Shown here: positions 5,646 through 57,090 of the stretch, piece by piece | How positions within the stretch are numbered: position 1 is the first letter of the stretch | Layout: each line of letters opens with the position of its first letter | Assembly: GCA_040390725.1 (NCBI GenBank) | Contig: JAZJXT010000006.1 | Coordinates: forward strand, 367-64,366 | Reading direction: 5' to 3' | Source: Patescibacteria group bacterium | GTDB taxonomy: Bacteria; Patescibacteriota; Minisyncoccia; Phycocordibacterales; UBA9973 | DNA length: 64,000 nt | Notes under the pieces: model-generated | What the model was told of the DNA's origin: nothing | What the model saw: only the letters and a program-made list of their open reading frames with translations | The model's database searches: none | Position numbers and translations under genes: made by a program

Positions 5646-5744
5646 AAGACATTATTTTTACTAAAACTCGCCTACTCTTTAAAGGATTTTCGGCTACTCC
5701 TTATTTATTTGTCAAAAAACTTTACCAAGCTCAAAAAAGAACAA

Positions 5745-19909: not shown

Positions 19910-19916
19910 ATTGTCT

Positions 19917-20234
19917 TTAATTTCTGACTTTGATCTTACCTCCCTTTAACTTTAGTTCTTTTCTCATAGCAGAGAAACTTTTCTTGTCACCTTTTATCAT
20001 ACTAGCGACTTTTTCTTCTTTTAAAATAATAGCCTTGCGGAAAGATTTAAATCTGTAACCGCGATTCTTTGGCAACTTCTTGATAATGTCTCGAAGTTCC
20101 GGACGGCGCTTGTTACCGGCACGAGCTGTCTGCCCCTTGCCTCCTCGGCCGGAAGTTTTCGCGTGCTTACCCCCGCGTCCTACGATGCGGTCTTTTTTAT
20201 TCTTATGTTCTCTTTTTAAATTATGTGTTTGCAT
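19917..20234 (-). CDS. rplO: 50S ribosomal protein L15 (short form)
   Basis: GRGGKGQTARAGNKRR ... LPKNRGYRF. Position between S5 and secY; no L30 gene in the 18-bp gap to rpsE. Confidence 0.7.
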   Translation of the reverse strand: MQTHNLKREHKNKKDRIVGRGGKHAKTSGRGGKGQTARAGNKRRPELRDIIKKLPKNRGYRFKSFRKAIILKEEKVASMIKGDKKSFSAMRKELKLKGGKIKVRN

Positions 20235-22373: not shown

Positions 22374-22526
22374 AAATAATTAAATTGGGATCTGCCCTGT
22401 TAATATCACGCTCTTTTTCTTTAACCCTTTAAAAACTAAAGAATTAAAGGAGAAAAGCGGATTAATCAAGACCGTATTCCCTTGCCTGCCATACTAGCAA
22501 ATTAGAAATAAATAGTCAAATATTTG

Positions 22527-22923
22527 TGGAACTGACGAGAATTGAACTCGTGTGCAAAAGGTTGTTGCAGAGAAATCGACATGCTTGGCTCATTTTTTTG
22601 TTTAAATTTTAAAATTCTTAAATGAGCAAAATATTTTAAAATCGAGTTCTAAGTTTTCGTGAAATATGCGAACAAATATTTCCTTATCCCGATAATATTA
22701 TGCCTCGTCTCATATATCGGAAGTCTATGAGGGAGACACCAGTTTGGCTTACGCGAAAGCTGGAGCGAAAGCAAAATCATTCATACCGAAGTATGGAGAA
22801 GCTTTTGCAAACGCCTTAGAAGTCAATTTTGCAATTAACATTTGAGCGAATTTTTTCGAGATTACGCTCATGCTCGGCATGCATCAATAGCAAAAGGCCT
22901 TTTGTCTATGCCTTGCAGTCCCC
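22527..22923 (-). ncRNA. ssrA: tmRNA (SsrA)
   Basis: Minus-strand 5' GGGGACUG pairs with 3' CAGUUCC + A (the acceptor stem has a G3-U wobble, the alanine identity element). T-arm acgag-TTCAATT-ctcgt. Internal tag-like reading frame ...gat ttt gct ttc gct cca gct ttc gcg TAA (..DFAFAPAFA*). Immediately adjacent to smpB. Confidence 0.7.
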
Positions 22924-40277: not shown

Positions 40278-40865
40278 TTAATATCCTAAAGCTTTAATAA
40301 TATCTTTTTGCACATCTTCGACGGACTGCTCGCCATTTACGGTAAAAAGTTCATAGCCTTGCTTGCCTTTAAAATAATTCATTGAAGGAATTACATTATT
40401 TACATATTCATCAAATCTTTTTTCAATGCCTTCCCTGGTATCATCAGCCCTGCCTCGCAATAAATTTCTTTTCATTGCTTCTTCTCGGCCTACTTCGATA
40501 TAAATTATTTTTACCTTTTCTCTTCTAAAAAATTTTATCATTTTTTCAAATGATTCTGCCTGTACTAAAGTGCGAGGATAACCATCCGCTATCAAATTTT
40601 TTTCATCAGACAAAGAAGAAGTCAAAATACTAGTGAAAATAGAAGTGGTTAAAAAATCAGGCTGGAGCTCCCCGCGAGCCATAGAGTCTTTTATCAAATA
40701 CCCAACATGATTGCCGGACTCTACTAGCTTCCTGTATTCATTTCCGGGATAAGCGCAAATAGTTTCCTTGGATGTCTTCTCTTTCAAGAAGTCCATCAGG
40801 AGCTTTATTTGTGTGCCCTTGCCGGAACCAACTATACCAAAAAATACTAAAGTTTCACTTTTCAT
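40278..40865 (-). CDS. adk: adenylate kinase
   Basis: GIVGSGKGTQ P-loop and the LID LLRGRADD. Confidence 0.7.
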   Translation of the reverse strand: MKSETLVFFGIVGSGKGTQIKLLMDFLKEKTSKETICAYPGNEYRKLVESGNHVGYLIKDSMARGELQPDFLTTSIFTSILTSSLSDEKNLIADGYPRTLVQAESFEKMIKFFRREKVKIIYIEVGREEAMKRNLLRGRADDTREGIEKRFDEYVNNVIPSMNYFKGKQGYELFTVNGEQSVEDVQKDIIKALGY

Positions 40866-40903
40866 ATATCAACAATACAGGATTTGTGCATAATAATCAA
40901 GAT

Positions 40904-40988
40904 TCCCCTCTTGAGGGGTGGCTCGCTTTAGCGAGACAATACTCCACCTCCCCCGCCTTCAAGGCGGGTACTCCTCAAGAGGAGAATT
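40904..40988 (+). repeat. R6a: ~90-110-nt structured repeat (ttcccctcttgaggggtgg ... ccacctcccc-hairpin-gggtactcctcaagaggagaat)
   Basis: Three same-orientation copies with conserved outer stems and a third hairpin showing compensatory changes (cccgcc/ggcggg here). Confidence 0.55.
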
Positions 40989-41014
40989 AAATCCGAGGTG
41001 AATTTAAAAACAAA

Positions 41015-41599
41015 TTGTGCTTTAATGTATATATGAAAAGAGAAATCATAACAATAGCCGGAGCGCCTGGCAGTGGCAAGTCCAGCACTGCGGACCTAGT
41101 AGCTAAAAACCTTAACTTTCAGCGTTTTTCATCGGGAGATTTCATGAGAAAAATTGCGCTCGAAATGGGGATAACAATAAATGAACTACAAACAGTCGCA
41201 GAGAATGACAAGACAATAGATTACAAAATTGATGAAGAAGTTAAAAAAGCCGGAGAACTAAACAAGGTGGTTATTGATTCCAGATTGGCATTTCACTGGA
41301 TGCCGGGTAGCTTCAAAGTTTACCTCGACCTCCCCCCACAAATAGCCAAGCAAAGAATTTTAAATAATTTAAAAACAAATCTTCTCAGACAAAAAAGTGA
41401 AGGCTCTTCTGATATAGAAGAAATTTACCAAAAAATAACAAGCCGTCTGGAAAGTGAAAAAAAGAGATACAAAGAACTTTATGATATAGACCATATGGAT
41501 AAAAATAATTTCGATCTGATAGTGGACACCGACAAAAATAATTTACAGGAAGTCGTAAAAATAATTACTGCCAAATATCAAGAATGGCTGGAAAAATAA
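41015..41599 (+). CDS. cytidylate-kinase-like P-loop kinase
   Basis: IAGAPGSGKSS Walker A and length. Confidence 0.45.
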   Translation: MCFNVYMKREIITIAGAPGSGKSSTADLVAKNLNFQRFSSGDFMRKIALEMGITINELQTVAENDKTIDYKIDEEVKKAGELNKVVIDSRLAFHWMPGSFKVYLDLPPQIAKQRILNNLKTNLLRQKSEGSSDIEEIYQKITSRLESEKKRYKELYDIDHMDKNNFDLIVDTDKNNLQEVVKIITAKYQEWLEK

Positions 41600-41677
41600 T
41601 AAGCTATCAAGCCTATTACTATCATCACAATAAAAATAATTAAAGTTTTAAAAAAATGTTTTGTAATCATTTTATTT

Positions 41678-41860
41678 TTATCTATAACCCATAAAATACA
41701 AAATCACTGCTAAGATAATAAGAATAAATACCAAGACATAAGGTATATTCCACCACCAATTTTTTTTATCCATGTGTTTTTCAAATTTCTCATAGCCATC
41801 AGTCACGATAAAAACAGGCAGAACCACCATCACAAAATAAAGAAAAAATATTATAGGCAT
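41678..41860 (-). CDS. small two-TM membrane peptide
   Basis: ORF track. Confidence 0.3.
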   Translation of the reverse strand: MPIIFFLYFVMVVLPVFIVTDGYEKFEKHMDKKNWWWNIPYVLVFILIILAVILYFMGYR

Positions 41861-41884
41861 AATTTTTTTATAAACTTGATATTT

Positions 41885-43597
41885 TTAATGTAAACTATTA
41901 CTTAAATAAGCCCTGGTCTTTGGGCCAAAATATCCGGAGGCAGGAATTATACCTACAACATTTTGCCATTCAATCATTGCAGCCTTGGTAAGTTTGCCGA
42001 AATTTCCATTTTTGCCAACCTTGGACAGAGCCCTAGCTTCCAGACCTTTATCCTGATGAATCAAAAAATCCTGCAGAGCCATCACTGCCTTACCTTTACT
42101 TCCCAAGCCAAGATTTATTGTAATATCTTTTATTGACGAAACAGCCACAAATTTAAAAGATTTGGAGGGTACCAGAACTGAAGACTTGGCCAGAGAATTT
42201 ACAGTCAACACATTGATATTATCTGATACCGTCGCTGACCCTACGCCTAAAGAATTTTTAAATTTCACATAAACAGTCTGCACTCCATCTCCAGCTGAAA
42301 GTGTCCATGATTTCTTCTGAGTGAAAGGCACCCATGACGCTCCAAGAAAAGAATTATTATTTGCAATCATCATTTGAGTAGCACCCTGACTGAAAAGAGT
42401 TAAAATGACATTAGAAGAAGGAGCCCCAGCCTCGCCATTATTTATCAAAACTGAAGCATGAGTAGTATTTGGTATGTTTAAAATATTTATTGTGGCTGTA
42501 TTTGTTGTTGTCGTACTCGTAGTATCCACAGGTGTTACATCTGGCTCAACATAAGAAGATGTAGTATGACGAATAGTTTGAACACTACCATTTACTACCG
42601 CTGTATCAGTCGGGCCGTCATTAGTCGATGCTACGAACACACCGACATCGTCTCCATTTACTATGCCATCACTGCCACTGTCAACATAAACAGGAATTTC
42701 AAAATTTAAAGTTCTAACATTAGTCGCAGTTGGGGTAATATTTGCTGTAATAAAAATTCTCAAACCTCCATTTGGAATAGCTGTTGTTAATCCGCTCAAA
42801 TTCCATTTTTGATTATTAGATGTCACAGTCATTAAGCCCAAATCAGTATCACTGCCTGCATTGAAAATATTATCACCATCATCTACCCAAGCATGCACAG
42901 CAGAAATATCAGTACTATTTACCGCAGTGCCGATATTTTGCACACCGAGACCTGTCAGCTTGTCATCTCTTCTGTCAAAAACCCCATTTGATGCAGATCC
43001 ACCCGCAGTACCGTTGTCATAAAAAATATCTTCACCAGCTTGATACTTGCCATCACTATTGGCATCACTAAATGCCCATGTATTGTTAACGTTAGACATT
43101 GGTCCAAAAAGAGGACCAGATCCTAATATAAAAGACATTGCGCCACTGGTACAAGTCGTATCGTTGGAAATAAAGACTTGCTCGCCAATATTAAAAGGAG
43201 GGATTAAGCTTTTTGCACAAAGCGAGACAAGTCCGGAAGGACTTTGGCTATCCACGATATCAACAGCACCAAAAGGTACTAAAGGTGCACCCTGATATAT
43301 CGCGGTAAAACTTCCACTACCGTTAGTAGTAGAACCTTGTCCGGAACTTATTCCGTCCGTATCTACCACAGTATCAGCAGTAAAAGAACTTCCATTCCAC
43401 GCATCAGGAATTTTTACATCCATCACCAAGACATTCGTATCACCTCTGTGCACTGTCGCTGTCGGAGCGACGTTGTTCGTAATATTAGTCGCCAAGGAAG
43501 CACTAGCAAGAGACGGGAGTTGAGAAAAAATTAAGCCAGCAATTATAAATACACTTTTTATAACTTTATTCATCAGTAAATTATAACATAATTGCAA
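41885..43597 (-). CDS. large secreted surface protein with a C-terminal peptidoglycan-binding (PG_binding_1-like) domain
   Basis: Signal peptide, a Thr/Asn/Gly/Ser-rich body, and C-terminal KGKAVMALQDFL...GNFGKLTKAAMIEWQ (PG-binding helical motif). Confidence 0.55.
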   Translation of the reverse strand: MQLCYNLLMNKVIKSVFIIAGLIFSQLPSLASASLATNITNNVAPTATVHRGDTNVLVMDVKIPDAWNGSSFTADTVVDTDGISSGQGSTTNGSGSFTAIYQGAPLVPFGAVDIVDSQSPSGLVSLCAKSLIPPFNIGEQVFISNDTTCTSGAMSFILGSGPLFGPMSNVNNTWAFSDANSDGKYQAGEDIFYDNGTAGGSASNGVFDRRDDKLTGLGVQNIGTAVNSTDISAVHAWVDDGDNIFNAGSDTDLGLMTVTSNNQKWNLSGLTTAIPNGGLRIFITANITPTATNVRTLNFEIPVYVDSGSDGIVNGDDVGVFVASTNDGPTDTAVVNGSVQTIRHTTSSYVEPDVTPVDTTSTTTTNTATINILNIPNTTHASVLINNGEAGAPSSNVILTLFSQGATQMMIANNNSFLGASWVPFTQKKSWTLSAGDGVQTVYVKFKNSLGVGSATVSDNINVLTVNSLAKSSVLVPSKSFKFVAVSSIKDITINLGLGSKGKAVMALQDFLIHQDKGLEARALSKVGKNGNFGKLTKAAMIEWQNVVGIIPASGYFGPKTRAYLSNSLH

Positions 43598-43618
43598 AAA
43601 AAAATACGCAAGAATTTA

Positions 43619-43738
43619 TTCCCCTCTTGAGGGGTGGACTTTGTATCCAAAGGACGGGGTGGAAGAATTCATCCACCTCCCCCTGCGGGTACTCCTCAAG
43701 AGGAGAATCAAAAAAAACACCCTCTCGGGTGTTTTTTT
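43619..43738 (+). repeat. R6b: second copy of the structured repeat, with a 3' intrinsic terminator (acaccctctcgggtgttttttt)
   Basis: See R6a. The middle insert actttgtatccaaaggacggggtggaag is shared with R6c. Confidence 0.55.
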
Positions 43739-43758
43739 GTTAATAACAAATTTATTAT

Positions 43759-45711
43759 TTATTCGTTATCCCCTGCCTCCATTTTCATTTTAGCTTTTGT
43801 CTTTGGACCTACGAGACCATCAGCTACGAGATCATGAGCCTTTTGCCATTTCTTTATTACAGAAATAGTCTTTGGACCAAGCTTTCCATCAACTACCAAA
43901 CCAAGATTAAGAAGTTGATTAAGAAGTTTTTGAAGTTCCATAACTGCATCACCTTTACTGCCATTCTTTAGAGTCATTGTGCCCAAATTAAATGGACCAT
44001 GAGCCTTTACGCCTTCGTTGTTTACGCAAAGATCGCCAGTAGAAGTGTTGTATTTATTTCCTCCGGAACATCCTGGAGACATTGTTGTCTCAGTTACTGC
44101 AGGAGTAGTAGGAGTCGCTGCTGTAACTGTAATAGTCACAGGAGTTTCACTCTGTGCTACTGTCGAAGTAGTCGAACCGGAAGGCGTAGGAGGTGTGCAA
44201 GTTGGGTAGTCAGTCGCGCCGTTTGAACAAATAGATGTACATGCTGGATAGTCAGTAGCTCCATTATCACAAACAAAATTATTACTGCTTGGTCGGCGAG
44301 CAACATCTACTGTGCCTGTTCCGGCAGCAGCAAAGTAAAAATCACTTGTATGGTCTGGAGTTGGAGATGCACCTACATTAGTTGAACCCCAAACACCAGC
44401 GCTTTTATATCCCCCATAAACCTTCATAGTGTCAGAGCTAGAAGCCCCTACCAATACCACCGGTAATGCTGAAAGTGATGAATCAATATTGAATAACTTC
44501 GTGATAATCAAAGCGCCTCCGAAAGTTTTCACTCCGCTACCGCTCAAAGAAAGATTATAGTAAGTACCAGAAGAAGCTACATTAGTAAATTTAACTGTTT
44601 GAGCTCCACCTGTGTAATTTACATTGTTACCTGTTGCAGTAGCATCAAGGTTAAATGTAGCAGATGTTCCGCCAAGATTCAAAGTAGTAGATGCTCCTTG
44701 TGTAAGAGTTCCAGAACCTGCGAGAGCAGTTCCGACTGTTAATGTGCCATTATTTGTATATGTTCCATCAACAGTCAAACTAGGGATACTAAGAGTTCCT
44801 GTTAAAGTTTTAGTTGAACCGGACAAAGTGTGCACACCTGAACTTGCAGTAAATGTGCCGGAATTTGCCAAGCTTCCTGCGATACCCACAGTAGCTGCAG
44901 CTGTTTCAGAATATGTTCCGCCGACAGTAACGTCATCACTAAATACAAGAGTAGCAGCCGCATTAACATTCATAGTTCCACTGTCAGTAACAGCGCCAGT
45001 GAAAGTCTTTGTTCCTGTGCCGGAAATTGTCAAAGTTCCTCCGCTAGCAACATTAGTAGTATTAGAAGCAGTAAATGTGTTGCCTGCCATAGTCAATGTA
45101 GCTCCATTAGCAACACTCAATGCGCCAGTAGCAGTAAGTGTATTTGCTCCAGCAGATAATGTGCCGGAATTTACAGCCAAAGTGCCTCCGACTGTAGTTG
45201 TACCAGACAAAGAAACTGTACCAGAACCACCAACTATAACATTGTTATATGTTGTATAAGTACCCATTGCTTGTGCACCTGCACCATTAAAAGTAAGAGT
45301 GCTACCTGTTCCGTCAAAAGTTCCACCAGCACCAAAGTTACCACCTACATTAATTGCACCTGCACTAGTTGTCAAAACAGCGCTTGACCCATTAAAAGTA
45401 ATATTACCACTTACTGTCAATGTTCCACCACTTACTGTCAATGTTCCACCACCAGCAGTATTATTTATAGTAATTGACGATGCGCCTGCAGAACCCGAGG
45501 CTAAAGTGACATTATCTCCTCCAACTATAGTAACTGCATCACCTTCAACTGGGACAATGCCTCCTACCCAAGTAGCCCCTGTATTCCAAGGACCTCCCCC
45601 TCCAGTAGAAGAGATTGCCGAGGCTTCAGCTTTGTTGGCTGAGAAACCAACAAGCATCAAAGCAAAAACAAAGAAAACAGAAACAAAACGAAATATTTTT
45701 TTATTTAACAT
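43759..45711 (-). CDS. large secreted Gly/Thr/Ser-rich (beta-helix-like repeats) surface protein with a C-terminal peptidoglycan-binding domain
   Basis: Signal peptide; repeats GGTLTVSGNITFNG etc.; C-terminal KGDAVMELQKLLN...DGKLGPKTISVIKKWQ. Confidence 0.55.
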   Translation of the reverse strand: MLNKKIFRFVSVFFVFALMLVGFSANKAEASAISSTGGGGPWNTGATWVGGIVPVEGDAVTIVGGDNVTLASGSAGASSITINNTAGGGTLTVSGGTLTVSGNITFNGSSAVLTTSAGAINVGGNFGAGGTFDGTGSTLTFNGAGAQAMGTYTTYNNVIVGGSGTVSLSGTTTVGGTLAVNSGTLSAGANTLTATGALSVANGATLTMAGNTFTASNTTNVASGGTLTISGTGTKTFTGAVTDSGTMNVNAAATLVFSDDVTVGGTYSETAAATVGIAGSLANSGTFTASSGVHTLSGSTKTLTGTLSIPSLTVDGTYTNNGTLTVGTALAGSGTLTQGASTTLNLGGTSATFNLDATATGNNVNYTGGAQTVKFTNVASSGTYYNLSLSGSGVKTFGGALIITKLFNIDSSLSALPVVLVGASSSDTMKVYGGYKSAGVWGSTNVGASPTPDHTSDFYFAAAGTGTVDVARRPSSNNFVCDNGATDYPACTSICSNGATDYPTCTPPTPSGSTTSTVAQSETPVTITVTAATPTTPAVTETTMSPGCSGGNKYNTSTGDLCVNNEGVKAHGPFNLGTMTLKNGSKGDAVMELQKLLNQLLNLGLVVDGKLGPKTISVIKKWQKAHDLVADGLVGPKTKAKMKMEAGDNE

Positions 45712-45944
45712 AAATTTTTTAAACTTAATAATAATGAATAATAATAAAGACCTAAATAAATGCTTGCAATAAGCACTAATTATTATAACAAATAGAAAAA
45801 TACAAGGATAGTAAAGGTGTGGATAAGTCAGCTTGTCTATGTCCTACTTGTCATGACTGCTTTTCTTTGCCGCGATTATTAAAAGAATAATGGCAATAGC
45901 TAGCAATGCCCCCAATATATATATATTAATCATAACATTTGTAC

Positions 45945-46142
45945 TCATAAGTTAGTTTCATTTTTTCTACTAAGAACATACATCGACCAAAAGATTATTG
46001 ACAAAATAAATCCGGAAATTACAACAGCATAATTTACCTCGACACCCATCAAGCTCGTAAGGAATACAGACGCAAAGAAAACTTGTCCTAAATCTTTACA
46101 TACTTCTCCTAAGGCTTTTGGATTTGCAAGTGAATTAAACAT
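45945..46142 (-). CDS. small membrane protein
   Basis: ORF track; 2 TM. Confidence 0.3.
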   Translation of the reverse strand: MFNSLANPKALGEVCKDLGQVFFASVFLTSLMGVEVNYAVVISGFILSIIFWSMYVLSRKNETNL

Positions 46143-46211
46143 AATCCAAGTATAACATAAAAATTAAAAAACCACTCAGTGAGAGTGGTTTTTTAATTAG
46201 AATAAATTTAT

Positions 46212-46709
46212 TTATTCCTGCACCAAAACAGTCGCTACGTTTTGGTATTTATCACAATCCACAAGAAGAGTTTTGGATTTCAAGTAAACATCAGGCAAAA
46301 CCACTATCTTGAAACTCCATGGCTTTATAGTAAATGTCGTCCCCACCTTTATTGTCCGAGTATTTGGAGACCTGTTATCCATCATAATACCAGTATTATC
46401 TTTATATGTAACGTTAAAAGGATGTGCCTGACATGTCTTATCAAGCTGAATTCTCCTGTCAGCATACTTTACTAAAGCGTTTGCGTATGACAAAGTTATA
46501 GCTGAACTTGTAACAGGACTAGGCTCAAGGTCTTGAACTGATTCCGGCTCAGTCCCTACCGTAGCTGTATTTTCAGCCGGATTTGTTACATCCGGAGCTA
46601 CCGCTTGCTTATTTTTAGACATAAATAATAAAACTAATACAATAACAACAACTACTCCTGCCCAAACCCACATAGATTTATTTTTTTCCATAAAATTTTT
46701 TACCACCAC
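46212..46709 (-). CDS. secreted/anchored hypothetical protein
   Basis: N-terminal TM/signal; ORF track. Confidence 0.35.
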   Translation of the reverse strand: MVVKNFMEKNKSMWVWAGVVVVIVLVLLFMSKNKQAVAPDVTNPAENTATVGTEPESVQDLEPSPVTSSAITLSYANALVKYADRRIQLDKTCQAHPFNVTYKDNTGIMMDNRSPNTRTIKVGTTFTIKPWSFKIVVLPDVYLKSKTLLVDCDKYQNVATVLVQE

Positions 46710-46812
46710 AGCCTTACGCTTAGGCAGTTATGTTAATTTTTAATTAATAAAACATTTATAATACTTTAATTATATCATACATAATGCCGTATCAACAAGT
46801 AAAATATTACAG

Positions 46813-46904
46813 CCTCACCCCCTTAATCCCCTCTCCGGAGTACCAGAGAGGGGAAACCAAATTCAAACACAAAAAAGCACCCATTTCTGAGTGCTTTTTT
46901 GTTT
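46813..46904 (+). repeat. R5 inverted-repeat end (cctcacccc-N5-cccctctcc-loop-gagagggg) plus R4 terminator repeat copy 1
   Basis: Inverted partner at 47617-47637. Direct repeat of aaaccaaat.caaacacaaaaaagcacccatttctgagtgcttttttgttt at 47638-47690. Confidence 0.6.
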
Positions 46905-46974
46905 GCTTGTTGAAAAATTTTCCACAGATATATTGCTTTTATTGTTAAAAAGTGTATAGTAATAATGTACTCGT

Positions 46975-47058
46975 GAACCGTAAGGTTTATTCGGCTAAGG
47001 AATTCCATACGCCGCAAGCGAGTACTACAAAGACGCCGTCGCTATGACGGCTTTTTTG
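46975..47058 (+). ncRNA. R3c: partial, degenerate copy of the R3 element, convergent with the 3' end of paralog X2, with its own terminator (gccgtcgctatgacggctttttt)
   Basis: cCGTAAGgtttaTTCGGCTAAGGAatTCC aligns to the cGTAAGccccTTATCGGCTAAGGAtcTTCC of R3a. Confidence 0.4.
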
Positions 47059-47455
47059 TTTGCTTTTCTTTCTTTTTCCAAACGCTCAAGAATGTAATAT
47101 TTCCATCACCTATCCTGCGCAAAACAACAGAAACAGTGGCTCCACTTTTTCCGGCGATTTCTTTTAATTCCCAAATCTCAAAATATTTACCGAGCGGTTT
47201 TGAATACTGCTGTTTTTTATAATCAAAAATACTTTTTGCGTTTTTAATTACAGGAATCACCAACGGAAGCAACCCCATTTTAAATTGTTGCTCTTTAATA
47301 TTTCTTTGTTTGCCGTGGCTATCATATCTTAAATGATAAAATCCTTTAGAATTAAAAATAATCTCTTCATTTAAAATAGGGCAATGCACTTTGCCAATGG
47401 TTTTATACCAAGCCCCCTTTTCTTTCAAAAATTCTTGAAACGATTGTTTTTCCAC
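47042..47455 (-). CDS. hypothetical protein, paralog family X (second copy)
   Basis: See 13132-13578. Confidence 0.5.
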   Translation of the reverse strand: MEKQSFQEFLKEKGAWYKTIGKVHCPILNEEIIFNSKGFYHLRYDSHGKQRNIKEQQFKMGLLPLVIPVIKNAKSIFDYKKQQYSKPLGKYFEIWELKEIAGKSGATVSVVLRRIGDGNITFLSVWKKKEKQTKKPS

Positions 47456-47496
47456 AAAATAGATTATAGCATAATAAGAAAAATATTTTATAAAAC

Positions 47497-47593
47497 AAAA
47501 AATCCACCTTTCGGTGGGTTCTTTGTTATGCCTGGCTTCAAGCTTAGGAATACCTTAGCTGAACGGGGCTTACGCCCACAGGCACACTTATAA
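47497..47593 (-). ncRNA. R3b: full copy of the R3 structured element, co-directional with and immediately upstream of paralog X2, ending in the terminator cccaccgaaaggtgg + U-run
   Basis: ~80% identity to 13027-13129 including the gggcgtaagcccc hairpin. Confidence 0.5.
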
Positions 47594-47616
47594 TCTAACA
47601 TAAAATTTTTAATTTT

Positions 47617-47690
47617 GGAGAGGGGTCAGGGGTGAGGAAAAACCAAATACAAACACAAAAAAGCACCCATTTCTGAGTGCTTTTTTGTTT
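47617..47690 (+). repeat. R5 inverted-repeat end (ggagaggggtcaggggtgagg) plus R4 terminator repeat copy 2
   Basis: Reverse complement of the first half of 46813-46853; R4 ~95% identical to 46854-46904. Confidence 0.6.
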
Positions 47691-47736
47691 CAATTTATCC
47701 GGAATTGATAACCGCTATAACTTAACAAACTATAGA

Positions 47737-50700
47737 CTAGCTAGTTAGGCCAACAGAATTTGTTGGGTAATTATTCAAGTATAAAGTGTTGTTTGTTGTC
47801 TCATTTCCTGTTGCACCACCTGCTGTGTCAGTCCAGACAAATGTTGCAGCTGCACCAACAGAACTTGAGATAGAGCTCGAGTGAGCACCACCAGAGTTAG
47901 GAACAGCTGAAACTGGGACAAAGATCTTGAAGGTAATAGTTGTTCCGTGTGCAATAAGGTAACCACCGTTATTAAAGGTGATTGTACTATTACCACTAGA
48001 GAACGAACCAGCTGTTGTTTCAAGAACAGCACCTGAAGCATCTTTTACAAAAATACTTGTTGTAGAAGAAGAAACTCCAGTTCCAGATGTAGAATCTGCA
48101 CCATCAGCAAGAGTTGCGTCAGTTGTAGATACATGAATATCTAAGCTCTGTAGAGTGATGTCTCCTGCTTGATCAGCGCTAACTGTAACGTTCATAGCGT
48201 TTTCGTTACCAACAGCTAGGACACCACCAGCAGCAACTACTGCGACAACTGGCTTTGAACCAACAACTCTCATAGTAGGAGTTGAGACAGTGATAGTACC
48301 AGTGTCTGAACTCGCTCCTCCGATAGTGTAGTAAACCTTTGTCATAGTAAGTTGTGAAGTGCCGTTATCAGAAGTGTATGCACCGATACCAGCAGCACCG
48401 ACAGATCCATAAGAAATCATTACAGGGAATGTAGCACCAGAAGAACCATTTGGAACAGCAAGGTTAAGACCTGTGATGTCAAATGTGTTGCCAGTAGTGT
48501 TAACATTACCAGTTTGTCCTCCTACAGTGATAGCAGTGATAGGATCAGTTGCGCCACTTGTAGAGAATGTGATTTCAGTAATATTTGCATTTCCGTTTGA
48601 AGATACAAATTTGAATGAACCTGTAGTTGCATTACTTACTCCTGTAGCTCCCGCTGCAACATACTGAGAAGTAGTTGAACTTGAAGTAACCAATGTAGGT
48701 GTAGCGACAGTACCAGTAGCCATTGTTATTGTTTGACCAGTAACATCTGTAAGACTAGTATTGCCATTTGCAAAGATAGAAACATTTGAACTTGAACCGA
48801 TACCTTGTGGAGCAAGCTTAGTAAGTATTGTACCGTAGTTTGCACCTCCAAGATCAGCCATCAAATCAATTGTCTTTGTTGCACCTGGTGCAAGAGTAAA
48901 GTCAACTGAGAAAGTATCAGTACCAGTTGGAGCAATTGGATTTGAACCAGAACCTGAAGTTTCTGAAGTTCTCAATCCGTTTACATAAGTGATAGCTGTA
49001 GCTGTCTTACCAGCGACAGTGATAGCAGCACCTAATGCACAACCTCCAGTACCTGCTGTAGAAACAGTTGTAGTAAGTTGTGTTGAACTTGCAACTGCAG
49101 TTACTGTACCAACTAGGTCTACTGTAGGACAATCAACAGTGATCACATCACCAGCATTGAAGCTAGCAGAAGATGATACGTTGATAGCGTGACCAGCACC
49201 TGCTGTAAAGTCACTACCAGCAGCAACCAATGTAGGAGTAGCAAATGTTGTTGTAACTCTCAAGCTAGTAACACGAACAGATTCAGATGTACTCTGGTTC
49301 TGCATAGTGTAAGAGCCAAGTTTTACGTTTGCAGTATTTGCATTCATAACTTGATTACCATAGCTAGCGTTCTTTCCAACGTTAAGAGTACCAGTTTGAA
49401 TGTTCAAAGTGTTACCTGTAACGCTTGGGATAGCCAAGCCATTGTGTGAGTTCATACCTTCAGCACCAGTAGAACTTCCTACTAGGCTAGCGTGAAGAGT
49501 ACCAGCTGTGTAGTTGATACTTGTGCTGTTTCGGATATCTGCACGGATTTCCAAATAACTATCAACACCTGCAGGCACAATCATTTGTGAGCCTGGTGTC
49601 ATATCTATTTGAGTACCGGAAGTACCAGTTGCAGTTTGAGTACCAATTTGTGAACCATTAAAGTAAGCAGTAACGTTCTGAAGAGTTGTTGTACTTCCAG
49701 AAGAAACTGTTCCACTAATAGTTGGTGTGAAAGAAAGCGTGTTTACCTTCATATCTTCACCGTAAGCATGCAATTTGAACTTAGCGATAGCTACGTTTGT
49801 AGCACCACCAGTCACTTTAGTCATAGCTTGGAAAGTAGGGTCAATAACAGCTGTCATTGAACCTGCGTTTATAGTGATTGAAGAGTAAGTTGCGTTTGTT
49901 ACACCTCCGAATACAACGTTGATTCCGACTTGAGAGTCGTAAACCATCATATCAGAAGCTAATTGAACTGAAAGTTGAATAGTTCTTGCAGAACCTTTTA
50001 CGACATCTGCGCGAACATCCAAAGTGTGGTTACCAGTAGTAAGTTCAACTGGCATTGCAGACAAGTCAAAGGTTACATAATTTGAACCATTAACTGTTGT
50101 CATTGTACCTGTAGAACCTAGAGCAAGTCCGTCTTTGTATAGTTTTACATTCGCTAGAGCGTCAGTAGGAGCAGAACCGATAACTCGGAAGTTTGCAGCC
50201 TTGAGCCATAGAGAGTGTGTACCTACAACATTGATAGGAGCTGACCATACTGTGTAAGCAGTAGTACCAGGGTTAACTGTAGGGTTAACAGGTAGAGTAT
50301 TTGTAGTGAAGCTTACTGAAGCAGCATTTGATCCAGTAGCGACATACATAGTATTACCAACCAAGTTAACATTTGTAGCTGCACCGCCAGTAACTGTGAA
50401 AGAAGTCATATTTACGCCAAGACTGTAAGCAGTGTTACCGACATTAAGCACGTCAGCTCTTACGGAAATAGTTCTTGAACCACTAACCATAAGATTAAGA
50501 CTACTCATAGTAAGATCACCGTTATTGTTGAAAGAGTAACCATCTGTCAAACGTGTTACACCATCGTATAGGTAAACGTTTGTAAGAGTACTCTGATCAG
50601 AAATACCAGTTCTCTTTAACATAACAGAGTTAACTGTTCCAGTTCCTGTGAATGTAACGTGTAACAAGTCAGCAGTAGCTTGACCGGCAACGATTGTGCC

Positions 50701-51273
50701 AGCAGCTGGGTTGTCTGTTGCAAGCATTACAGTAACAGGACCAGTTTGAGAAGCAGTAGAACTTGCTGCGTAGCAAGCTCCGCCAGTTACAGGACTAAAT
50801 CCTGCAGCTGAAGTACAACCAGGTGGAAGGAATGTGTTTGCCATTACGCTAGCACATGACATGCCAGTTGTTGAACTGTATCCAGAAGCTGAAGTACAGC
50901 CTGCTGGGAAGTTACCTGATACTGAACCGTGAGCGACTAATGAAGCTCGTGACATTGGTCCGAATACTCCGTCAGCTGTAAGGCCGGCAGAAGCTTGGAA
51001 CATTTTCACTGCAGCCTTAGTTGCGTTTCCGAAGTATGTTGTTTCCATACCTGCAGAACCAGCACTAACACCGTCAACGTGGAAACCCTTTTCATTAAGC
51101 ATCTGTTGAAGACACATAACTTGAGAATTTCTCATTCCATATTTCAAAGTCATAGTGAAGCCAGTACAATTTGCTGCGTTGACTTCTGTTGCATTTACAG
51201 CAACAACACCAACGAACATAACTGCCGCCATCACAACTCCTGAAAGGAATTTTGATTTAAATAAATTACTCAT
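47737..51273 (-). CDS. giant (1178 aa) secreted Thr/Ser/Gly/Val-rich surface protein with an N-terminal peptidoglycan-binding domain
   Basis: Signal peptide, then CTGFTMTLKYGMRNSQVMCLQQMLNEKGF...ATKAAVKMFQASAGLTADGVFGP (PG_binding_1-like), followed by >1000 aa of low-complexity beta-rich sequence. Confidence 0.55.
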   Translation of the reverse strand: MSNLFKSKFLSGVVMAAVMFVGVVAVNATEVNAANCTGFTMTLKYGMRNSQVMCLQQMLNEKGFHVDGVSAGSAGMETTYFGNATKAAVKMFQASAGLTADGVFGPMSRASLVAHGSVSGNFPAGCTSASGYSSTTGMSCASVMANTFLPPGCTSAAGFSPVTGGACYAASSTASQTGPVTVMLATDNPAAGTIVAGQATADLLHVTFTGTGTVNSVMLKRTGISDQSTLTNVYLYDGVTRLTDGYSFNNNGDLTMSSLNLMVSGSRTISVRADVLNVGNTAYSLGVNMTSFTVTGGAATNVNLVGNTMYVATGSNAASVSFTTNTLPVNPTVNPGTTAYTVWSAPINVVGTHSLWLKAANFRVIGSAPTDALANVKLYKDGLALGSTGTMTTVNGSNYVTFDLSAMPVELTTGNHTLDVRADVVKGSARTIQLSVQLASDMMVYDSQVGINVVFGGVTNATYSSITINAGSMTAVIDPTFQAMTKVTGGATNVAIAKFKLHAYGEDMKVNTLSFTPTISGTVSSGSTTTLQNVTAYFNGSQIGTQTATGTSGTQIDMTPGSQMIVPAGVDSYLEIRADIRNSTSINYTAGTLHASLVGSSTGAEGMNSHNGLAIPSVTGNTLNIQTGTLNVGKNASYGNQVMNANTANVKLGSYTMQNQSTSESVRVTSLRVTTTFATPTLVAAGSDFTAGAGHAINVSSSASFNAGDVITVDCPTVDLVGTVTAVASSTQLTTTVSTAGTGGCALGAAITVAGKTATAITYVNGLRTSETSGSGSNPIAPTGTDTFSVDFTLAPGATKTIDLMADLGGANYGTILTKLAPQGIGSSSNVSIFANGNTSLTDVTGQTITMATGTVATPTLVTSSSTTSQYVAAGATGVSNATTGSFKFVSSNGNANITEITFSTSGATDPITAITVGGQTGNVNTTGNTFDITGLNLAVPNGSSGATFPVMISYGSVGAAGIGAYTSDNGTSQLTMTKVYYTIGGASSDTGTITVSTPTMRVVGSKPVVAVVAAGGVLAVGNENAMNVTVSADQAGDITLQSLDIHVSTTDATLADGADSTSGTGVSSSTTSIFVKDASGAVLETTAGSFSSGNSTITFNNGGYLIAHGTTITFKIFVPVSAVPNSGGAHSSSISSSVGAAATFVWTDTAGGATGNETTNNTLYLNNYPTNSVGLTS

Positions 51274-51687
51274 AATATTAATTTTTAATTCCGCTTAAGA
51301 ATTTTATAAAATGTTTAACTTTTATATAAATTCAAAATCGGGATTGTGTGGTTGTAATTTAGTTTCGACTTGTCATAATTTTTTTATTAAAAAATGACAA
51401 AACTAAAACCACACTGTTAATCTAATATCTCGCTTTTTAACGCGAGACAATTTAGACACAAACTTGATAACCATCAAAAACAGAAAACAATTTTCGTATT
51501 CTATTTTCAATGATCTTGTATCGTGTGCGCAAACTTTTTCCATAACAGAAAAAGCTTTGCCCAAGACACATAACTATTATAGTACTTGCACTATAAATAG
51601 AGCAAGTAAAATTGTGGATAAACCCCTTAATAAATAAAGAGTTCGCCACGTTTTTGATATTAGCAAATTTAGAACCTTTAAGCAAAT

Positions 51688-52506
51688 TTAGATATTATAT
51701 TTTGACCACCTCTTCTCCCCTGTTTTTTTTAACAAATTGTCCTTTACCATAGAGATGAGTTCGCGCTGTAAAGTTTTCTCTCCGCATGTCCTTAAGACAC
51801 CTTGGGCGTTATCTTTGATGTCCTTTATTGTCGCTCCACCTTTGTCCTTTATAATTTTTATTATCTCTTCATGGCGTTGTTTTTTTAGATTATTGAAAGC
51901 CTCTCCCCCCGCCCTCTCCAAAGTAGAGGGAGCTTTAATTTTGTCCGATATCGCTTTCATTAAAGTGTGTCCTTTTTGAAGACCAAAATTTATAGATTGA
52001 TGTCCGTTAGAAACTTCTTTCACCCTCTCCTTGATAAGGAGAGGGTTGGGGTGAGGTGAATTTTGAAATTTATTTTCTACTTCTTCTTCCCCAAAAAAAT
52101 CCTCCAATAAAACAGAATTTCTTTGCGTATCCAACACCTCTGAATTTAAAAATTCTTTCATTTTTAAAAACTCTCTTTTTAAAATAGTAGAATTCATTTC
52201 TGAAATTAAATTCACGGTCAAAGCTATGTCCAATAAAGATATTATGGCAGAAATTTTTTGATCTAAATGTGTATGTAAGGAATCTGTGTCCGATATAATT
52301 TCCGTACCTAATGTCCTTAATTTATTACGTAATGGCTCTTCTTTGTCCATTATGTCCGTTACCATATAAAGAGCTATTATAAGCTTATTTGTTTTTGTGT
52401 AGGACATCAACATTCCTCCTGTATTCCCATGTCTCCTGAGCACTGAAAGAGCTGATGTCGCATAGCTGTCTTTGAGATTTTTATTTTCATCTAACATGTT
52501 GTCCAT
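51688..52506 (-). CDS. hypothetical protein carrying in-frame R5-like palindromic segments
   Basis: ORF track. ccctctccttgataaggagagggttggggtgagg at 52023-52057 lies inside the ORF and encodes ..HPNPLLIKER.. Confidence 0.35.
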   Translation of the reverse strand: MDNMLDENKNLKDSYATSALSVLRRHGNTGGMLMSYTKTNKLIIALYMVTDIMDKEEPLRNKLRTLGTEIISDTDSLHTHLDQKISAIISLLDIALTVNLISEMNSTILKREFLKMKEFLNSEVLDTQRNSVLLEDFFGEEEVENKFQNSPHPNPLLIKERVKEVSNGHQSINFGLQKGHTLMKAISDKIKAPSTLERAGGEAFNNLKKQRHEEIIKIIKDKGGATIKDIKDNAQGVLRTCGEKTLQRELISMVKDNLLKKTGEKRWSKYNI

Positions 52507-52538
52507 TATATATAAAAGACATAGAAATGCAAATCTTA

Positions 52539-52650
52539 TTCCCCTCTTGAGGGGTGGACTTTGTACTCAAAGGACGGGGTGGAGGTTTTCGGGTTAATAA
52601 ATTCTCCACCTCCCCCCGACAGTAGTCGGGGTACTCCTCAAGAGGAGAAT
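52539..52650 (+). repeat. R6c: third copy of the structured repeat
   Basis: ttcccctcttgaggggtggactttgtactcaaaggacggggtggagg...ccacctccccccgacagtagtcggggtactcctcaagaggagaat. Confidence 0.55.
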
Positions 52651-52680
52651 TAAAAAAAATATGTTAAAATACATTTACTT

Positions 52681-54960
52681 ATGGCAAAAAATTCAAACAG
52701 TAAAAATAATAAAAACAGCAAGGAAAAAATTAAAGATAAAAATGAAAAACCTGCACGCGGGAACAAAGAATCTTCCGGAAAAAATAATCAGCAAAAGAAA
52801 TTAAAAACAGAAACAAAACACAGCATCATAGCAATAATATTTTTTGTTCTAGCGGTATTTCTTTTCATGGCGGCATTTGATTGGGCGGGCATGGCAGGAA
52901 AATTTGTTCATGATGTTTTGCATTATCTTTTGGGTTGGGGTTATGGGCTTTTGCCTGCTCTATTTGTATTGTTAGGAATTTCTTTTCTAAAATCAGAATA
53001 CGAAAATGTCGGATGGTTGCGAGCAGGCAGTGGACTTTTATTTTTAATGTCCGGACTAGGCATCATAGACATAGCTTCCGCAAATCATTCAGGCGGACTT
53101 TTTGGAGAAATTTCCGCCGCTCCTTTAGTTTACTTTTTTGATCCATCTGCAAGTATTGTTTTCCTCGGAGCAATTTTAATAATTTCCATTTTAATAATGT
53201 TTGATGCTGAGCTCGCAGTCATGCCATTCTTTGAAAGAGTTTGGGTAGCGATTAAAAGAATTTTTGTAAAAAATAATACAGAAGAAAGTGAAGAGGAGGA
53301 AGAATCTACCTCACCTGAACCACAAGAAGAGGAAGAAGAAGTGCCTGAAGAAAAAGAAACGACCGGAGAAAAAATTAAAAAAGTATTAGGTGTCGGCAAA
53401 AAAGAAAAAACAAAAGAAGAAAAAGTAGAGGAAGAAGAAATGCCGGTCAGAAAAACAAGAAGCTTGTTATCAACCTATGTCCCTCCCCCACTCACACTCC
53501 TCGAAGAAGACAAAGGTAAACCAAACACTGGCGACATCAAAGCAAATGGAAATATTATCAAACGCACACTAGCGAACTTCGGCATCGAAGTCGAAATGGA
53601 TGAGATAACTGTCGGCCCTAGTATCACACGTTATGCTTTGAAGCCAGCCGAGGGAGTAAAACTTTCAAAAATAGTAGCCCTCCAAAGTGACCTTGCTCTC
53701 GCATTAGCTGCTCACCCCTTGCGTATCGAAGCCCCCATCCCAGGCAAGTCACTCGTCGGTATTGAAATCCCTAACAAAGTAAAATCCACCGTCGGACTAG
53801 CTACACTTCTTTCAGATGATAAATTTAAAAATTCACCAAACCCTCTCGATGTGGCCCTCGGTCGTGGAATTTCCGGAAAAGCAGTATTCGACAACTTGGC
53901 AAAAATGCCTCATGCGCTCATCGCTGGTACAACAGGATCCGGAAAATCCGTCACCATTCACTCAGTCATTACTTCCCTTTTATATAGAAACGGCCCAGAT
54001 GATTTGAAGTTAATAATGGTTGACCCAAAGCGTGTAGAATTAACTTTATACAATAAAATTCCCCACCTACTCACTCCTGTCATCACTGAAGCAAAAAAAT
54101 GTATCTTGGCTTTGAAATGGGCAGCAAAAGAAATGGATAGGCGTTATGATATCCTCCAAGAAGAATCCGTACGTGATATCAATTCTTACCATGAAACTAT
54201 TTATCCTAGATTATTAAAGACTTACGAAAAAGCCACAGAAAAAGGCGACGAGACGGCAAAACAACCAGAACGCATGCCATATATTGTCATTATTATAGAT
54301 GAGCTCGCAGACATCATGATCGCCTACCCTCGAGAACTAGAGTCTGCAATAGTCCGCCTCGCTCAAATGTCTCGAGCTGTCGGCATACATATTATATTGT
54401 CCACTCAACGCCCGGAAGTAAATGTCATCACCGGATTGATCAAAGCAAACATCCCTGCGCGTATTGCCCTCAAAGTTTCTTCCGGTATAGATTCACGCAC
54501 AATATTAGATGCCACCGGTGCAGAAAAACTTTTAGGTGCCGGAGATATGCTTTACTCTTCCGGTAAAGCTCAGCCAGAACGTCTACAATCAGCATTTATA
54601 ACCGAAGCTGAAGTAAAAAGCGTCGTAAAATATCTCGCAGATGCTTACAAAGATGAAGTCATGGAAGACATTGCTATGACGACAGGCAATATTTCCGCTG
54701 ACAAAAGTATTTTTGAAAGCACTCTAGATGATGCGGGTGACGATGACGAAATGTACGAAGAAGCTCGTGCTTGTGTTATAGAGGCCGGTAAAGCATCCAC
54801 TTCGTATTTGCAAAGAAAATTAAAATTGGGTTATGCCAGAGCAGCACGACTCATGGATATGCTAGAAGAACGCGGAGTCATCAGTGCTGGCGACGGTGCA
54901 AAACCTAGAGAGGTTTTAGAAAAGATTGAACATACAGAATCCGGTGAAAACGTCATATAA
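52681..54960 (+). CDS. ftsK: DNA translocase FtsK/SpoIIIE
   Basis: N-terminal TM segments, an acidic linker, and a C-terminal motor with Walker A IAGTTGSGKS and a gamma-domain-like end. Confidence 0.85.
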   Translation: MAKNSNSKNNKNSKEKIKDKNEKPARGNKESSGKNNQQKKLKTETKHSIIAIIFFVLAVFLFMAAFDWAGMAGKFVHDVLHYLLGWGYGLLPALFVLLGISFLKSEYENVGWLRAGSGLLFLMSGLGIIDIASANHSGGLFGEISAAPLVYFFDPSASIVFLGAILIISILIMFDAELAVMPFFERVWVAIKRIFVKNNTEESEEEEESTSPEPQEEEEEVPEEKETTGEKIKKVLGVGKKEKTKEEKVEEEEMPVRKTRSLLSTYVPPPLTLLEEDKGKPNTGDIKANGNIIKRTLANFGIEVEMDEITVGPSITRYALKPAEGVKLSKIVALQSDLALALAAHPLRIEAPIPGKSLVGIEIPNKVKSTVGLATLLSDDKFKNSPNPLDVALGRGISGKAVFDNLAKMPHALIAGTTGSGKSVTIHSVITSLLYRNGPDDLKLIMVDPKRVELTLYNKIPHLLTPVITEAKKCILALKWAAKEMDRRYDILQEESVRDINSYHETIYPRLLKTYEKATEKGDETAKQPERMPYIVIIIDELADIMIAYPRELESAIVRLAQMSRAVGIHIILSTQRPEVNVITGLIKANIPARIALKVSSGIDSRTILDATGAEKLLGAGDMLYSSGKAQPERLQSAFITEAEVKSVVKYLADAYKDEVMEDIAMTTGNISADKSIFESTLDDAGDDDEMYEEARACVIEAGKASTSYLQRKLKLGYARAARLMDMLEERGVISAGDGAKPREVLEKIEHTESGENVI

Positions 54961-56994: not shown

Positions 56995-57004
56995 TTTTTT
57001 TATT

Positions 57005-57051
57005 CCTCCCCTCTCTAAAATTTTTATTTTGGAGAGGGGTCGGGGGTGAGG
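57005..57051 (+). repeat. R5 inverted-repeat end bounding the hicBA cassette (right)
   Basis: cccctctc-loop-ggagagggg tcggggg tgagg; reverse complement of the left end core. Confidence 0.55.
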
Positions 57052-57090
57052 AAATTTGATTTTATTTTAAAATTTGATAACATACTAAAT

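Follow-up and report, generated by a model that had tools for sequence, protein, structure and literature searches.

What kind of element do three short, structured repeats in the spacers of a Patescibacteria genome represent, an RNA gene or mobile DNA? This question is raised by a 64,000-nt stretch of contig JAZJXT010000006.1 (Patescibacteria group bacterium, assembly GCA_040390725.1, positions 367 to 64,366, forward strand), which is referred to here as the window. A first-pass annotation of the window had described the repeats as a structured non-coding RNA (ncRNA) family or a structured miniature inverted-repeat transposable element (MITE). The MITE option was found to be near the mark while no support was found for a dedicated ncRNA. 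Each copy is a head-to-head doublet, in which a two-hairpin module (A) is joined to a diverged module (B) on the opposite strand, and doublets of this form have spread within Patescibacteria, entering intergenic spacers and, in frame, housekeeping genes. The window copies are probably gene-less selfish DNA similar to REPINs (hairpin-forming doublets of repetitive extragenic palindromic, or REP, sequences), MITEs and Rickettsia palindromic elements (RPEs), which is handled by nucleases of the DUF559 family.

Anatomy of the module and of the three copies

All three copies were found on the + strand and each is bounded by ATTC...GAAT, with coordinates read directly from the sequence: copy a at 40902..40987 (86 nt), copy b at 43618..43708 (91 nt) and copy c at 52538..52650 (113 nt). 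The conserved unit is a ~45-50-nt two-hairpin module that runs AATTCCCCT-CTTG-AGGGGTGG, a variable hairpin (P2) and then ACGGGGTGGA. On its G-rich strand the module reads AATTCCCC-T-CTTG-A-GGGG (helix P1, whose 5' start can also be written (A)ATTCCCC-T-CTTG-A-GGGG), TGG, the short free-sequence hairpin P2 and (A)CGGGGTGGA. In the window copies, the 3' half is the diverged variant B, ATTCTCCTCTTGAGGAGTACCC-hairpin-GGGGAGGTGGA, and the three copies have the 5' end ATTCCCCTCTTGAGGGGTGG and the 3' end GGGTACTCCTCAAGAGGAGAAT in common. Solitary modules occur in many of the genomes among the matches listed in the wider scan described below.

In copy a, the A half (~40902-40941) is made up of P1 CCCCT-CTTG-AGGGG, GGTGG and P2 CTCGCT-TT-AGCGAG with the second GGGGTGG box deleted, and the B half (~40940-40987) is read on the - strand. 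The A half of copy b (43618-43666) carries P2 CTTTG-TATC-CAAAG and the box ACGGGGTGGA, which is followed by the spacer AGAATTCA and by the B half on the - strand (43669-43708). In copy c, P2 of the A half (52538-52586) is CTTTG-TACT-CAAAG, a longer spacer follows, and P2 of the B half (52602-52650, - strand) is CCCCGAC-TACT-GTCGGGG. The variable self-complementary hairpin that had been noticed at first (cccgcc/ggcggg and its equivalents) is real. The central insert, which had been ascribed to copies b and c only, has a homologous and compensated counterpart in the P2 hairpin of copy a, where only the 7-nt GGGGTGG box is missing. The proposed pairing of the 5' GGTGG with ccacc was also revised, as CCACC(T)CCCC in copies b and c pairs with the internal GGGGTGGA box instead.

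A covariance model was built from an alignment of 63 distinct modules from unrelated genomes. Across the 64 kb it gave six matches, arranged as three +/- pairs and located only at copies a-c, with E-values from 3e-20 to 4e-7; the next best match in the window had an E-value of 0.38. The pairs are 40899-40941 (+, E 9.5e-13) and 40940-40990 (-, E 8.7e-10) for copy a, 43615-43666 (+, E 3e-20) and 43669-43711 (-, E 3.8e-7) for copy b, and 52535-52586 (+, E 1.4e-19) and 52602-52653 (-, E 2.6e-8) for copy c. Terminal inverted repeats are therefore present, as every copy gives one + and one - match to a single module model, and copies with perfect terminal inverted repeats were observed in other genomes (L009 and L108). 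The 10-mer CCTCTTGAGG occurs nine times in the window with at most one mismatch, where 2.1 were expected and no shuffle gave nine. The folds of all three copies also beat those of shuffled sequences, both as RNA (z -4.0 to -6.3, both strands) and as DNA (z -3.4 to -7.2). The 10-mer excess and the covariance-model pairs show that the three same-orientation copies are real and not chance. Their earlier coordinates held to within 1-2 nt, except that the end given for copy b (43738) takes in a separate terminator.

Modules A and B differ in P1 by one pair, C:G in one and T:A in the other, so that the local hairpin is kept. Within the three-way junction that had been drawn for the whole repeat, the same change introduces C.A and G.T mismatches in the long closing helix, which is still predicted by RNA and DNA folding when the doublet is treated as a free single strand. 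Evolutionary conservation applies to the module and its pair of local hairpins, and the three-way junction is one possible fold only.

Compensatory base changes had been suggested from the three copies and were confirmed across the 63 distinct modules. A total of 94% of the helix cells are paired in this set (88% for P2 alone), and both helices together show 120 double-change cells vs 42.5 in shuffles and 10-36 in slid controls, counts which were taken on repeats and are uncorrected for relatedness. P1 is invariant in the 63-module set due to the search word, which fixes P1. Modules that were obtained independently of the word, at DUF559 loci, show covariation of distal P1 (CCCCTCC/GGAGGGG, CCCCTTC/GAAGGGG, CCCCTCTT/AAGAGGGG and CCCCTTTT/AAAAGGGG).

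The loops of P2 carry a strand signature. P2 ends in a triloop in 191 of the 283 parsed modules, and on the G-rich strand the GNA triloops number 155 (GAA 90, GCA 29, GTA 25 and GGA 11) vs five of the complementary TNC type. A C:G pair closes the triloop in 173 modules. GNRA tetraloops, which are common in RNA, were observed to be rare among the P2 loops. The asymmetry holds in both inverted halves, the favoured strand being the G-rich strand of each, and therefore one transcript cannot contain both signatures. C-GNA-G is the classic extra-stable mini-hairpin of DNA, d(GCGAAGC), and is much less special in RNA. Because the GNA asymmetry is found in both halves and d(C-GNA-G) is so stable, we take the loops to favour a module hairpin that acts in single-stranded or extruded DNA.

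A structured ncRNA family, acting as a small RNA or in cis through the three-way-junction fold, would agree with the strong predicted RNA folds (closing helix included) and with the hairpin covariation, whereas the loop signature cannot be reconciled with a single transcript and Rfam holds no match. The Rfam check that had been proposed for the repeats gave nothing on the element at the gathering threshold over the whole window or at a permissive E-value for copies a and b and seven module or cassette loci. Sub-threshold matches near copy b (Phe_leader, RNAI and STnc370) align mainly to the terminator hairpin and are elsewhere weak and at chance level, and a Pedobacter locus gave only sub-threshold matches to Flavo-1 and whalefall-1, away from the module. 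The gathering-level matches of the window are unrelated to the element: the 5' end of 23S rRNA (minus strand, 1-183), a DUF805b motif (5669-5702) and tmRNA (22524-22922). With the genomic context given below, we regard an ncRNA family as very improbable.

Copies in spacers and in-frame copies in genes

Copy a lies in the spacer between adk and the cmk-like gene and copy c in the context of ftsK, as had been described; copy b lies between genes of 570 and 650 aa, for which the earlier label of giant genes did not stand. The closest adk relatives of the window are from Nomurabacteria and Paceibacterota (70-76% identity). We compared the locus with five distinct contigs that carry four distinct adk orthologs (74-76% identical). 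The order secY, cmk-like (opposite strand), adk, pyrH-like, map and DUF8128 is kept in all five, and their cmk-adk spacer measures 22-88 nt without the element, while the spacer in the window measures 167 nt, of which 86 nt is copy a. Copy a is thus an insertion relative to the related genomes. That the copies might be nothing more than insertion polymorphisms had been anticipated, and they do behave as insertion polymorphisms, while the parallel suggestion that the repeat might be absent from all relatives failed because the family is abundant in them. Logan contig SRR26324628_12164 (L120), an independent assembly of the same adk locus, breaks inside copy a; the element repeats break short-read assemblies.

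In the window, secY and the small gene preceding it (18641-20234) lie 21 kb from the cmk-like gene and adk (40278-41599), and these genes are adjacent in the retrieved relatives. A connection of the element copies with this break of secY-to-cmk synteny was rejected, as the breakpoint (~41600-41885) does not fall at the element.

By eye, the adk promoter was placed on the - strand at 40866..40900, with a -35 box TTGATT (40900-40895), 17 nt, a -10 box TATTGT (40877-40872) and 6 nt to the ATG at 40865. Its -35 box is located 1 nt from the A end of copy a, and relatives without the element keep the same layout (TTGATT, 17-18 nt, TATTCT or TATTGT, 6-8 nt, ATG). Copies b and c show a -35-like hexamer 5-6 nt from the A end, and a -10 box, often TGn-extended, precedes the ATG of the genes beside the elements by 6-10 nt, both again by eye. 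The by-eye sites fall at window positions 40863-40900, 43597-43612, 52497-52533, 41015-41035 and 52651-52683. A promoter scan reported only TTTGCA-N17-TATAAT beside copy c (52505-52533) and no site in the region of copy b. On the by-eye reading, the neighbouring genes appear to be leaderless or nearly so and the elements would lie outside their mRNAs. For a 272-aa open reading frame (ORF) to the left of copy c, there is probable overlap between the listed start and the -10 box, and translation likely begins at an ATG 9 nt further downstream.

These positions bear on the possibility that the element is a motif adopted by the host, at the DNA or RNA level, as a protein-binding site, an insulator between divergent promoters or a stabiliser of mRNA ends, as has been proposed for some REP sequences and bacterial interspersed mosaic elements (BIME), enterobacterial repetitive intergenic consensus (ERIC) sequences and Correia repeats. 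All three copies are in promoter-bearing spacers with the A end 1-6 nt from a by-eye -35-like hexamer, their folds are very stable, and the structure is kept over long divergence, even in RNase R orthologs that are 75% identical. However, the same spacer in relatives is without the element though the adk promoter is conserved, copies occur in either orientation and within coding sequence, and three copies are too few for a positional rule. We consider such a host motif unlikely.

The element was also considered as an intrinsic terminator and rejected. By sequence reading no T-run follows the element on either strand of copies a-c, hence its hairpins are not intrinsic terminators, and the single terminator-scan match at copy a has the tail AATCTTGATT and does not qualify as one. 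Copy b had been thought to end in an intrinsic terminator. This is a distinct, bidirectional terminator hairpin at ~43710-43739 (A-run, CACCC-TCTC-GGGTG, T-run), separate from the element, which ends the minus-strand gene 43759-45711 just before copy b. The hairpin with its T-run is missing at copies a and c. A terminator after copy b might have spoken for an ncRNA, but it serves the upstream gene and has no equivalent at the other two copies; the orientation of the copies to the neighbouring genes is mixed, and the flanking genes seem to be leaderless with their by-eye promoters between the element and the ATG.

The copies of relatives extend the picture from spacers to genes. Fifteen of the 32 window-type doublets in the fetched loci were found inside long stop-free frames. 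Four genes carry a doublet internal to the conserved protein, each in at least two genomes: RNase R (L064, L106), PheT (L024, L072), RsmA (L015, L047, L057, L031) and PurD (L019, L020). The PheT, RsmA and PurD insertions fall within conserved domains. In RNase R, the insertion lies in the RNB domain and gives DDAISFRV[INSPLEGW...SSRGEL]YEIGIHIADVS. Among the 120 closest orthologs (proteins P0241-P0360), 56 have a plain loop of 13-14 aa at this place and about 60 have an extra 3-31 aa, and the extra segments are of several G-rich types (INSPLEGW..SSRGEL, LPSLNKEGVGGG..GTPPQKGG, DLSPTPLH..NGEGRRGE, VIRPPRPSGTPPSQGE and LPLLNKERAGGEV). From its sequence, the loop between DDAISF and YEIGIHIADV looks like an insertion hotspot or, failing that, a loop in which insertions are tolerated. 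The copies of the window are all intergenic, and placement in frame was observed only for the copies of relatives. A protein-coding repeat was considered and rejected, as P2 lengths vary out of frame.

The RNase R loci with this loop include L106:4756-6804, L064:3649-5790, L215:201-2201 and L214:201-2195, and the first three of them show the element in both orientations at one site. The doublet reads A then B' in L106 and L064 and is flipped, B then A', in L215, with the same flanks in all three (TTT CGY ATT YTW, then AATTC...GAATT, then R TAY GAA). This suggests that the doublet was flipped in place or re-inserted through its palindromic AATT ends. The mixed orientation, the coding insertions and the flipping point to a DNA element and not to an RNA gene; the flipped RNase R copy and the in-frame insertions thus count further against an ncRNA.

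Distribution of the module and its association with DUF559 genes

A scan of 185,579 species genomes was made for the exact 19-mer TTCCCCTCTTGAGGGGTGG and is therefore biased to one exact word; true module abundance and diversity are larger than it shows. The 19-mer was found in at least 119 genome stretches, with labels covering more than ten phyla and with cultured isolates included. Among the matches listed, these labels comprise Patescibacteria, Kapabacteria/Ignavibacteria, Bacteroidota, Bacillota, Thermotogaceae, Nitrospirota, Verrucomicrobiota, Planctomycetota (Brocadia), Cloacimonadota, Bdellovibrionales, Hyphomicrobiales and Simkania, and there are two isolates (Parasediminibacterium JCM 36343 and Pedobacter cryotolerans, strain AR-2-6) and two single-record chromosomes. 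Single-record chromosomes that hold many copies are Kapabacteria OY761611.1 and Flavobacterium CP096136.1. A phage origin was rejected, as only one 19-mer match was found in 2.9 M IMG/VR viral contigs.

The module was found to be associated with one protein. The 414 ORFs within 400 nt of the 19-mer, again among the matches listed, were clustered, and the sole recurrent real protein bracketed by modules is a DUF559 protein of ~115-135 aa. These ORFs match PF04480 (E 1e-24), are Vsr-like or PD-(D/E)XK-like, and have as their nearest solved structure 3HRL, an 'endonuclease-like protein'. No cluster of transposase, RAYT or TnpA (Y1) was found among the 414 ORFs, not every one of which was scanned against Pfam.

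As an independent test, 80 metagenome loci were chosen by DUF559 protein similarity alone and then searched for modules. Module density was 3.28 per kb beside the DUF559 gene vs 0.094 per kb at more than 600 nt away, a 35-fold difference. The nearest upstream module is on the + strand in 54 loci and on the - strand in five, and the nearest downstream module is on the - strand in 47 and on the + strand in nine. The layout module(+)-gene-module(-) occurs in 39 loci vs two with the reversed layout (-,+). The cassette is compact (~0.5 kb): the DUF559 ATG often lies 3-6 nt after a GGGGTGGT box and the inverted module lies 0-90 nt past the end of the DUF559 protein match. In most cases P2 is long at the left end (GGCAGGCGAAGCCTGAC) and short at the right end (GCCCGAAGGGC). 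In canonical cassettes, the second box GGGGTGG(T) thus stands 3-6 nt before the ATG in the position of a ribosome-binding site, a feature that would suit a role in RNA. The DUF559 subfamily is present in Nomurabacteria and Paceibacterota, and one Patescibacteria DUF559 gene is immediately followed by a doublet of the window type. We also observed truncated DUF559 remnants beside a module (L055, L101) and nested or tandem modules (L091, L100, L145). In an earlier study, 'DUF559 domain-containing protein' was 14-fold enriched among predicted programmed-inversion targets (PMC9881135), which fits genes flanked by inverted repeats.

In three genomes (L100, L121, L122), cassettes of one lineage occupy an identical position within the conserved central part of hsdS, and these copies differ by whole-module insertions or deletions. 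At L100:420-1110, L121:860-1580, L122:595-1290 and L091:980-1730, the cassette splits the type I restriction gene hsdS into two half-genes. The cassettes of L121, L122 and L100 were considered as recent movement into different contexts, which was rejected as the alignment shows the same hsdS junction. In two Patescibacteria genomes (L208:1380-2200 and L211:1400-2180), a DUF559 gene lies inside a conserved order pilM-x-DUF559-pilN-pilO, where its ORF starts at an ATG ahead of the upstream modules and continues through them. One of these two genes has a window-type doublet directly behind it.

Several further observations concern the repeats themselves. Two stretches from a metagenome-assembled genome (MAG) labelled Simkania (L001, L087) carry doublets whose A module is identical to that of copy c; these are either a recent transfer between Patescibacteria and chlamydia-like bacteria or mis-binned contigs. 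In a Bacillota MAG from termite gut (WRLT01; L026, L033, L042, L078, L108 and L116), the second box GACGGGGTGGAAAG occurs alone and forms arrays and hairpins with spacers of ~20-50 nt in both orientations, which suggests that the hairpin-plus-box unit can multiply by itself. At L079:6076-6464, a module runs directly into a long (GAATTAC)n tandem repeat, which continues up to the end of the examined stretch. The window holds a second, related G-rich repeat at 57003-57054 (TTCCTCCCCTCTC, a 15-nt AT loop and GGAGAGGGG-TC-GGGGGTGAGGAAA), part of which recurs as GGAGAGGGGTCAGGGGTGAGGAAA at 47614-47640. This repeat goes undetected by the module model, and a box similar to it adjoins the module in Parasediminibacterium (L021). 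Other two-copy repeats of the window, with 81-97% identity, are 47634-47690/46848-46904, 12031-12103/13595-13667, 17418-17476/18626-18684 and 1060-1121/2559-2620, and two of these pairs contain a terminator-like hairpin (e.g. AAAAAAGCACCCATTTCTGAGTGCTTTTTT).

Mode of spread, known relatives and meaning

The doublets are best accounted for, in our analysis, as non-autonomous selfish DNA. We propose that the hairpins of the single-stranded or extruded G-rich strand would be the structure recognised by a DUF559-type nuclease acting in trans. This enzyme would introduce nicks or cuts at or close to the ATT/AAT termini. Since a PD-(D/E)XK hydrolase cannot do strand transfer, the copying, moving or flipping of the element would be completed by repair or ligation in the host. 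The window copies would be passengers lodged just upstream of promoters, without an RNA that has a function of its own, and they may perturb transcription.

A number of points weigh against this proposal. A lone hydrolytic nuclease is not a transposase, we know of no enzyme activity for this DUF559 subfamily, and no DUF559 gene lies in the 64-kb window. No target-site duplication is definable at the copies, which show only palindromic ATT...AAT or AATT...AATT ends and whose empty alleles are highly diverged; a target duplication is indistinguishable from the terminal inverted repeat because the ATT/AAT ends are themselves palindromic. The single-stranded DNA argument leans on general knowledge of how stable the d(C-GNA-G) mini-hairpin is, and covariation among repeats may stem from selection on the active sources or from gene conversion among the copies and need not mean a function at each locus. 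The near-identical cassettes of L121, L122 and L100 share one hsdS insertion site, and the DUF559 gene of the pilM-pilO order has modules in reversed polarity and gives the impression of being resident, not a recent arrival. Carriers are mostly MAGs, and some phylum labels, such as that of the Simkania MAG, may be mis-binned. The cross-phylum range is still supported by the isolates, by single-record Bacteroidota and Kapabacteria chromosomes and by contigs from many independent studies.

The main rival to handling of the doublets by DUF559 nucleases holds that there are two selfish elements, in which the doublets spread by another enzyme or by recombination and DUF559 is a free-standing homing endonuclease that targets them. 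The nuclease would cut empty doublets between the GGGGTGG boxes, the gene would be copied in by repair with the modules as homology arms, and the window copies would be unoccupied landing pads and not deletion derivatives. In keeping with this, a table in PMC3424549 places a group I intron homing endonuclease within the Vsr/DUF559 group of PD-(D/E)XK nucleases, the position of the gene between the inner boxes is fixed (ATG a few nt after GGGGTGGT, stop 0-90 nt before the inverted box), the hsdS cassettes occupy one precise site in three genomes, and modules occur without a nearby gene in many genomes. On the other hand, arms of 45 nt are short for recombinational repair, the truncated DUF559 remnants (L055, L101) fit decay of the cassette, and the spread of the doublets themselves is left unexplained. 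The present data do not separate an endonuclease invading pre-existing doublets from the reading we favour, and we rate it as somewhat unlikely.

With nuclease-handled selfish doublets as the preferred reading, the closest functional parallels of the element are REPINs with their RAYT gene and RPEs, yet it does not belong to the REP/RAYT, MITE or IS200/IS605 groups. The REP/REPIN-RAYT system (REPtron) shares with it a short palindromic unit, inverted doublets forming a long hairpin as the proliferating form, a small nuclease-type gene bracketed by inverted units, the lack of an obvious target duplication and a presumed single-stranded DNA structure. It differs in that the gene here is a DUF559 hydrolase (PF04480, PD-(D/E)XK, Vsr-like) and not a Y1 HUH transposase, the module sequence is near-unchanged across phyla and not lineage-specific, copies also occur inside genes, and the nuclease cassette is multi-copy and nested. 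RPEs are likewise palindromic repeats of ~80-150 bp that are stop-free in some frames, and their behaviour as described in PMC10969869 matches the copies of relatives, which lie in frame in housekeeping genes and are kept as extra peptide loops. In contrast to RPEs, the taxa here are Patescibacteria and others, the sequence is G-rich rather than AT-rich, a modular two-hairpin unit has an associated nuclease gene, and the window copies are intergenic.

MITEs are alike in being small, non-coding and multi-copy, with terminal inverted repeats and presence or absence between related genomes. Here, however, there is no demonstrable target-site duplication, no insertion sequence (IS) with a recognised transposase was found to share the ends among the 414 module-adjacent ORFs of the matches listed, and what serves as the 'ends' is a structured module of ~50 nt, which is also encountered alone and in arrays. 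IS200/IS605 elements and the palindrome-associated transposable elements (PATE) resemble the cassette in their very small enzyme (~120-150 aa), hairpin ends, lack of an obvious target duplication and strand-specific structural signature. Unlike them, the cassette has no TnpA(Y1) or TnpB, its ends are inverted and not like-oriented hairpins on one strand, and its chemistry would need to be hydrolytic. Vsr-fold homing endonucleases (PMC3424549) share a small Vsr/DUF559-type gene that recurs at one precise site, as the cassette does in the central region of hsdS and the window copies do not, but there is no intron or intein here and the structured inverted repeats on either side of the gene are also found without it. 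Integron attC sites were rejected, since no R''/R' cores (RYYYAAC ... GTTRRRY) were found by eye and the modules flank the gene inverted and not direct; dif-like sites were rejected as well.

The open literature, with DUF559 papers covered by title and abstract and subscription literature outside the scope, gave no description of the module sequence or of DUF559 cassettes flanked by inverted repeats. The open literature on Patescibacteria with MITE or palindromic element held nothing relevant, and a sequence-string match in a plant microsatellite paper was rejected as chance.

A bolder possibility, which we put forward tentatively and with some doubt, is that a module pair with its DUF559 gene forms a new class of autonomous mobile element. 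Its size of ~0.45-0.55 kb would be below that of any known autonomous IS. Its Vsr-like PD-(D/E)XK nuclease would recognise strand-specific C-GNA-G DNA hairpins, its ends would be near-unchanged across phyla, and its gene-less doublets would be colonising the spacers and, in frame, the essential genes of Patescibacteria.

A 50-nt non-coding module that is near-identical across more than ten phyla is unusual among bacterial repeats. The in-frame copies indicate that the tiny, streamlined genomes of Patescibacteria tolerate selfish DNA inside essential enzymes, which bears on protein evolution, and the element explains the recurrent 'IPLLRGG / NSPLEGW / TPQEGN' peptide junk in nearby gene calls. 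To our knowledge, DUF559 is a very large protein family without an assigned function, and if the nuclease link is true the family would gain a testable one. The element would then be mobile DNA that relies on DNA hairpins and on hydrolytic chemistry of the restriction-enzyme kind, a counterpart to REPIN/RAYT and IS200 with a different enzyme, and the cultured carriers Pedobacter cryotolerans AR-2-6 and Parasediminibacterium JCM 36343 make bench work on it feasible.

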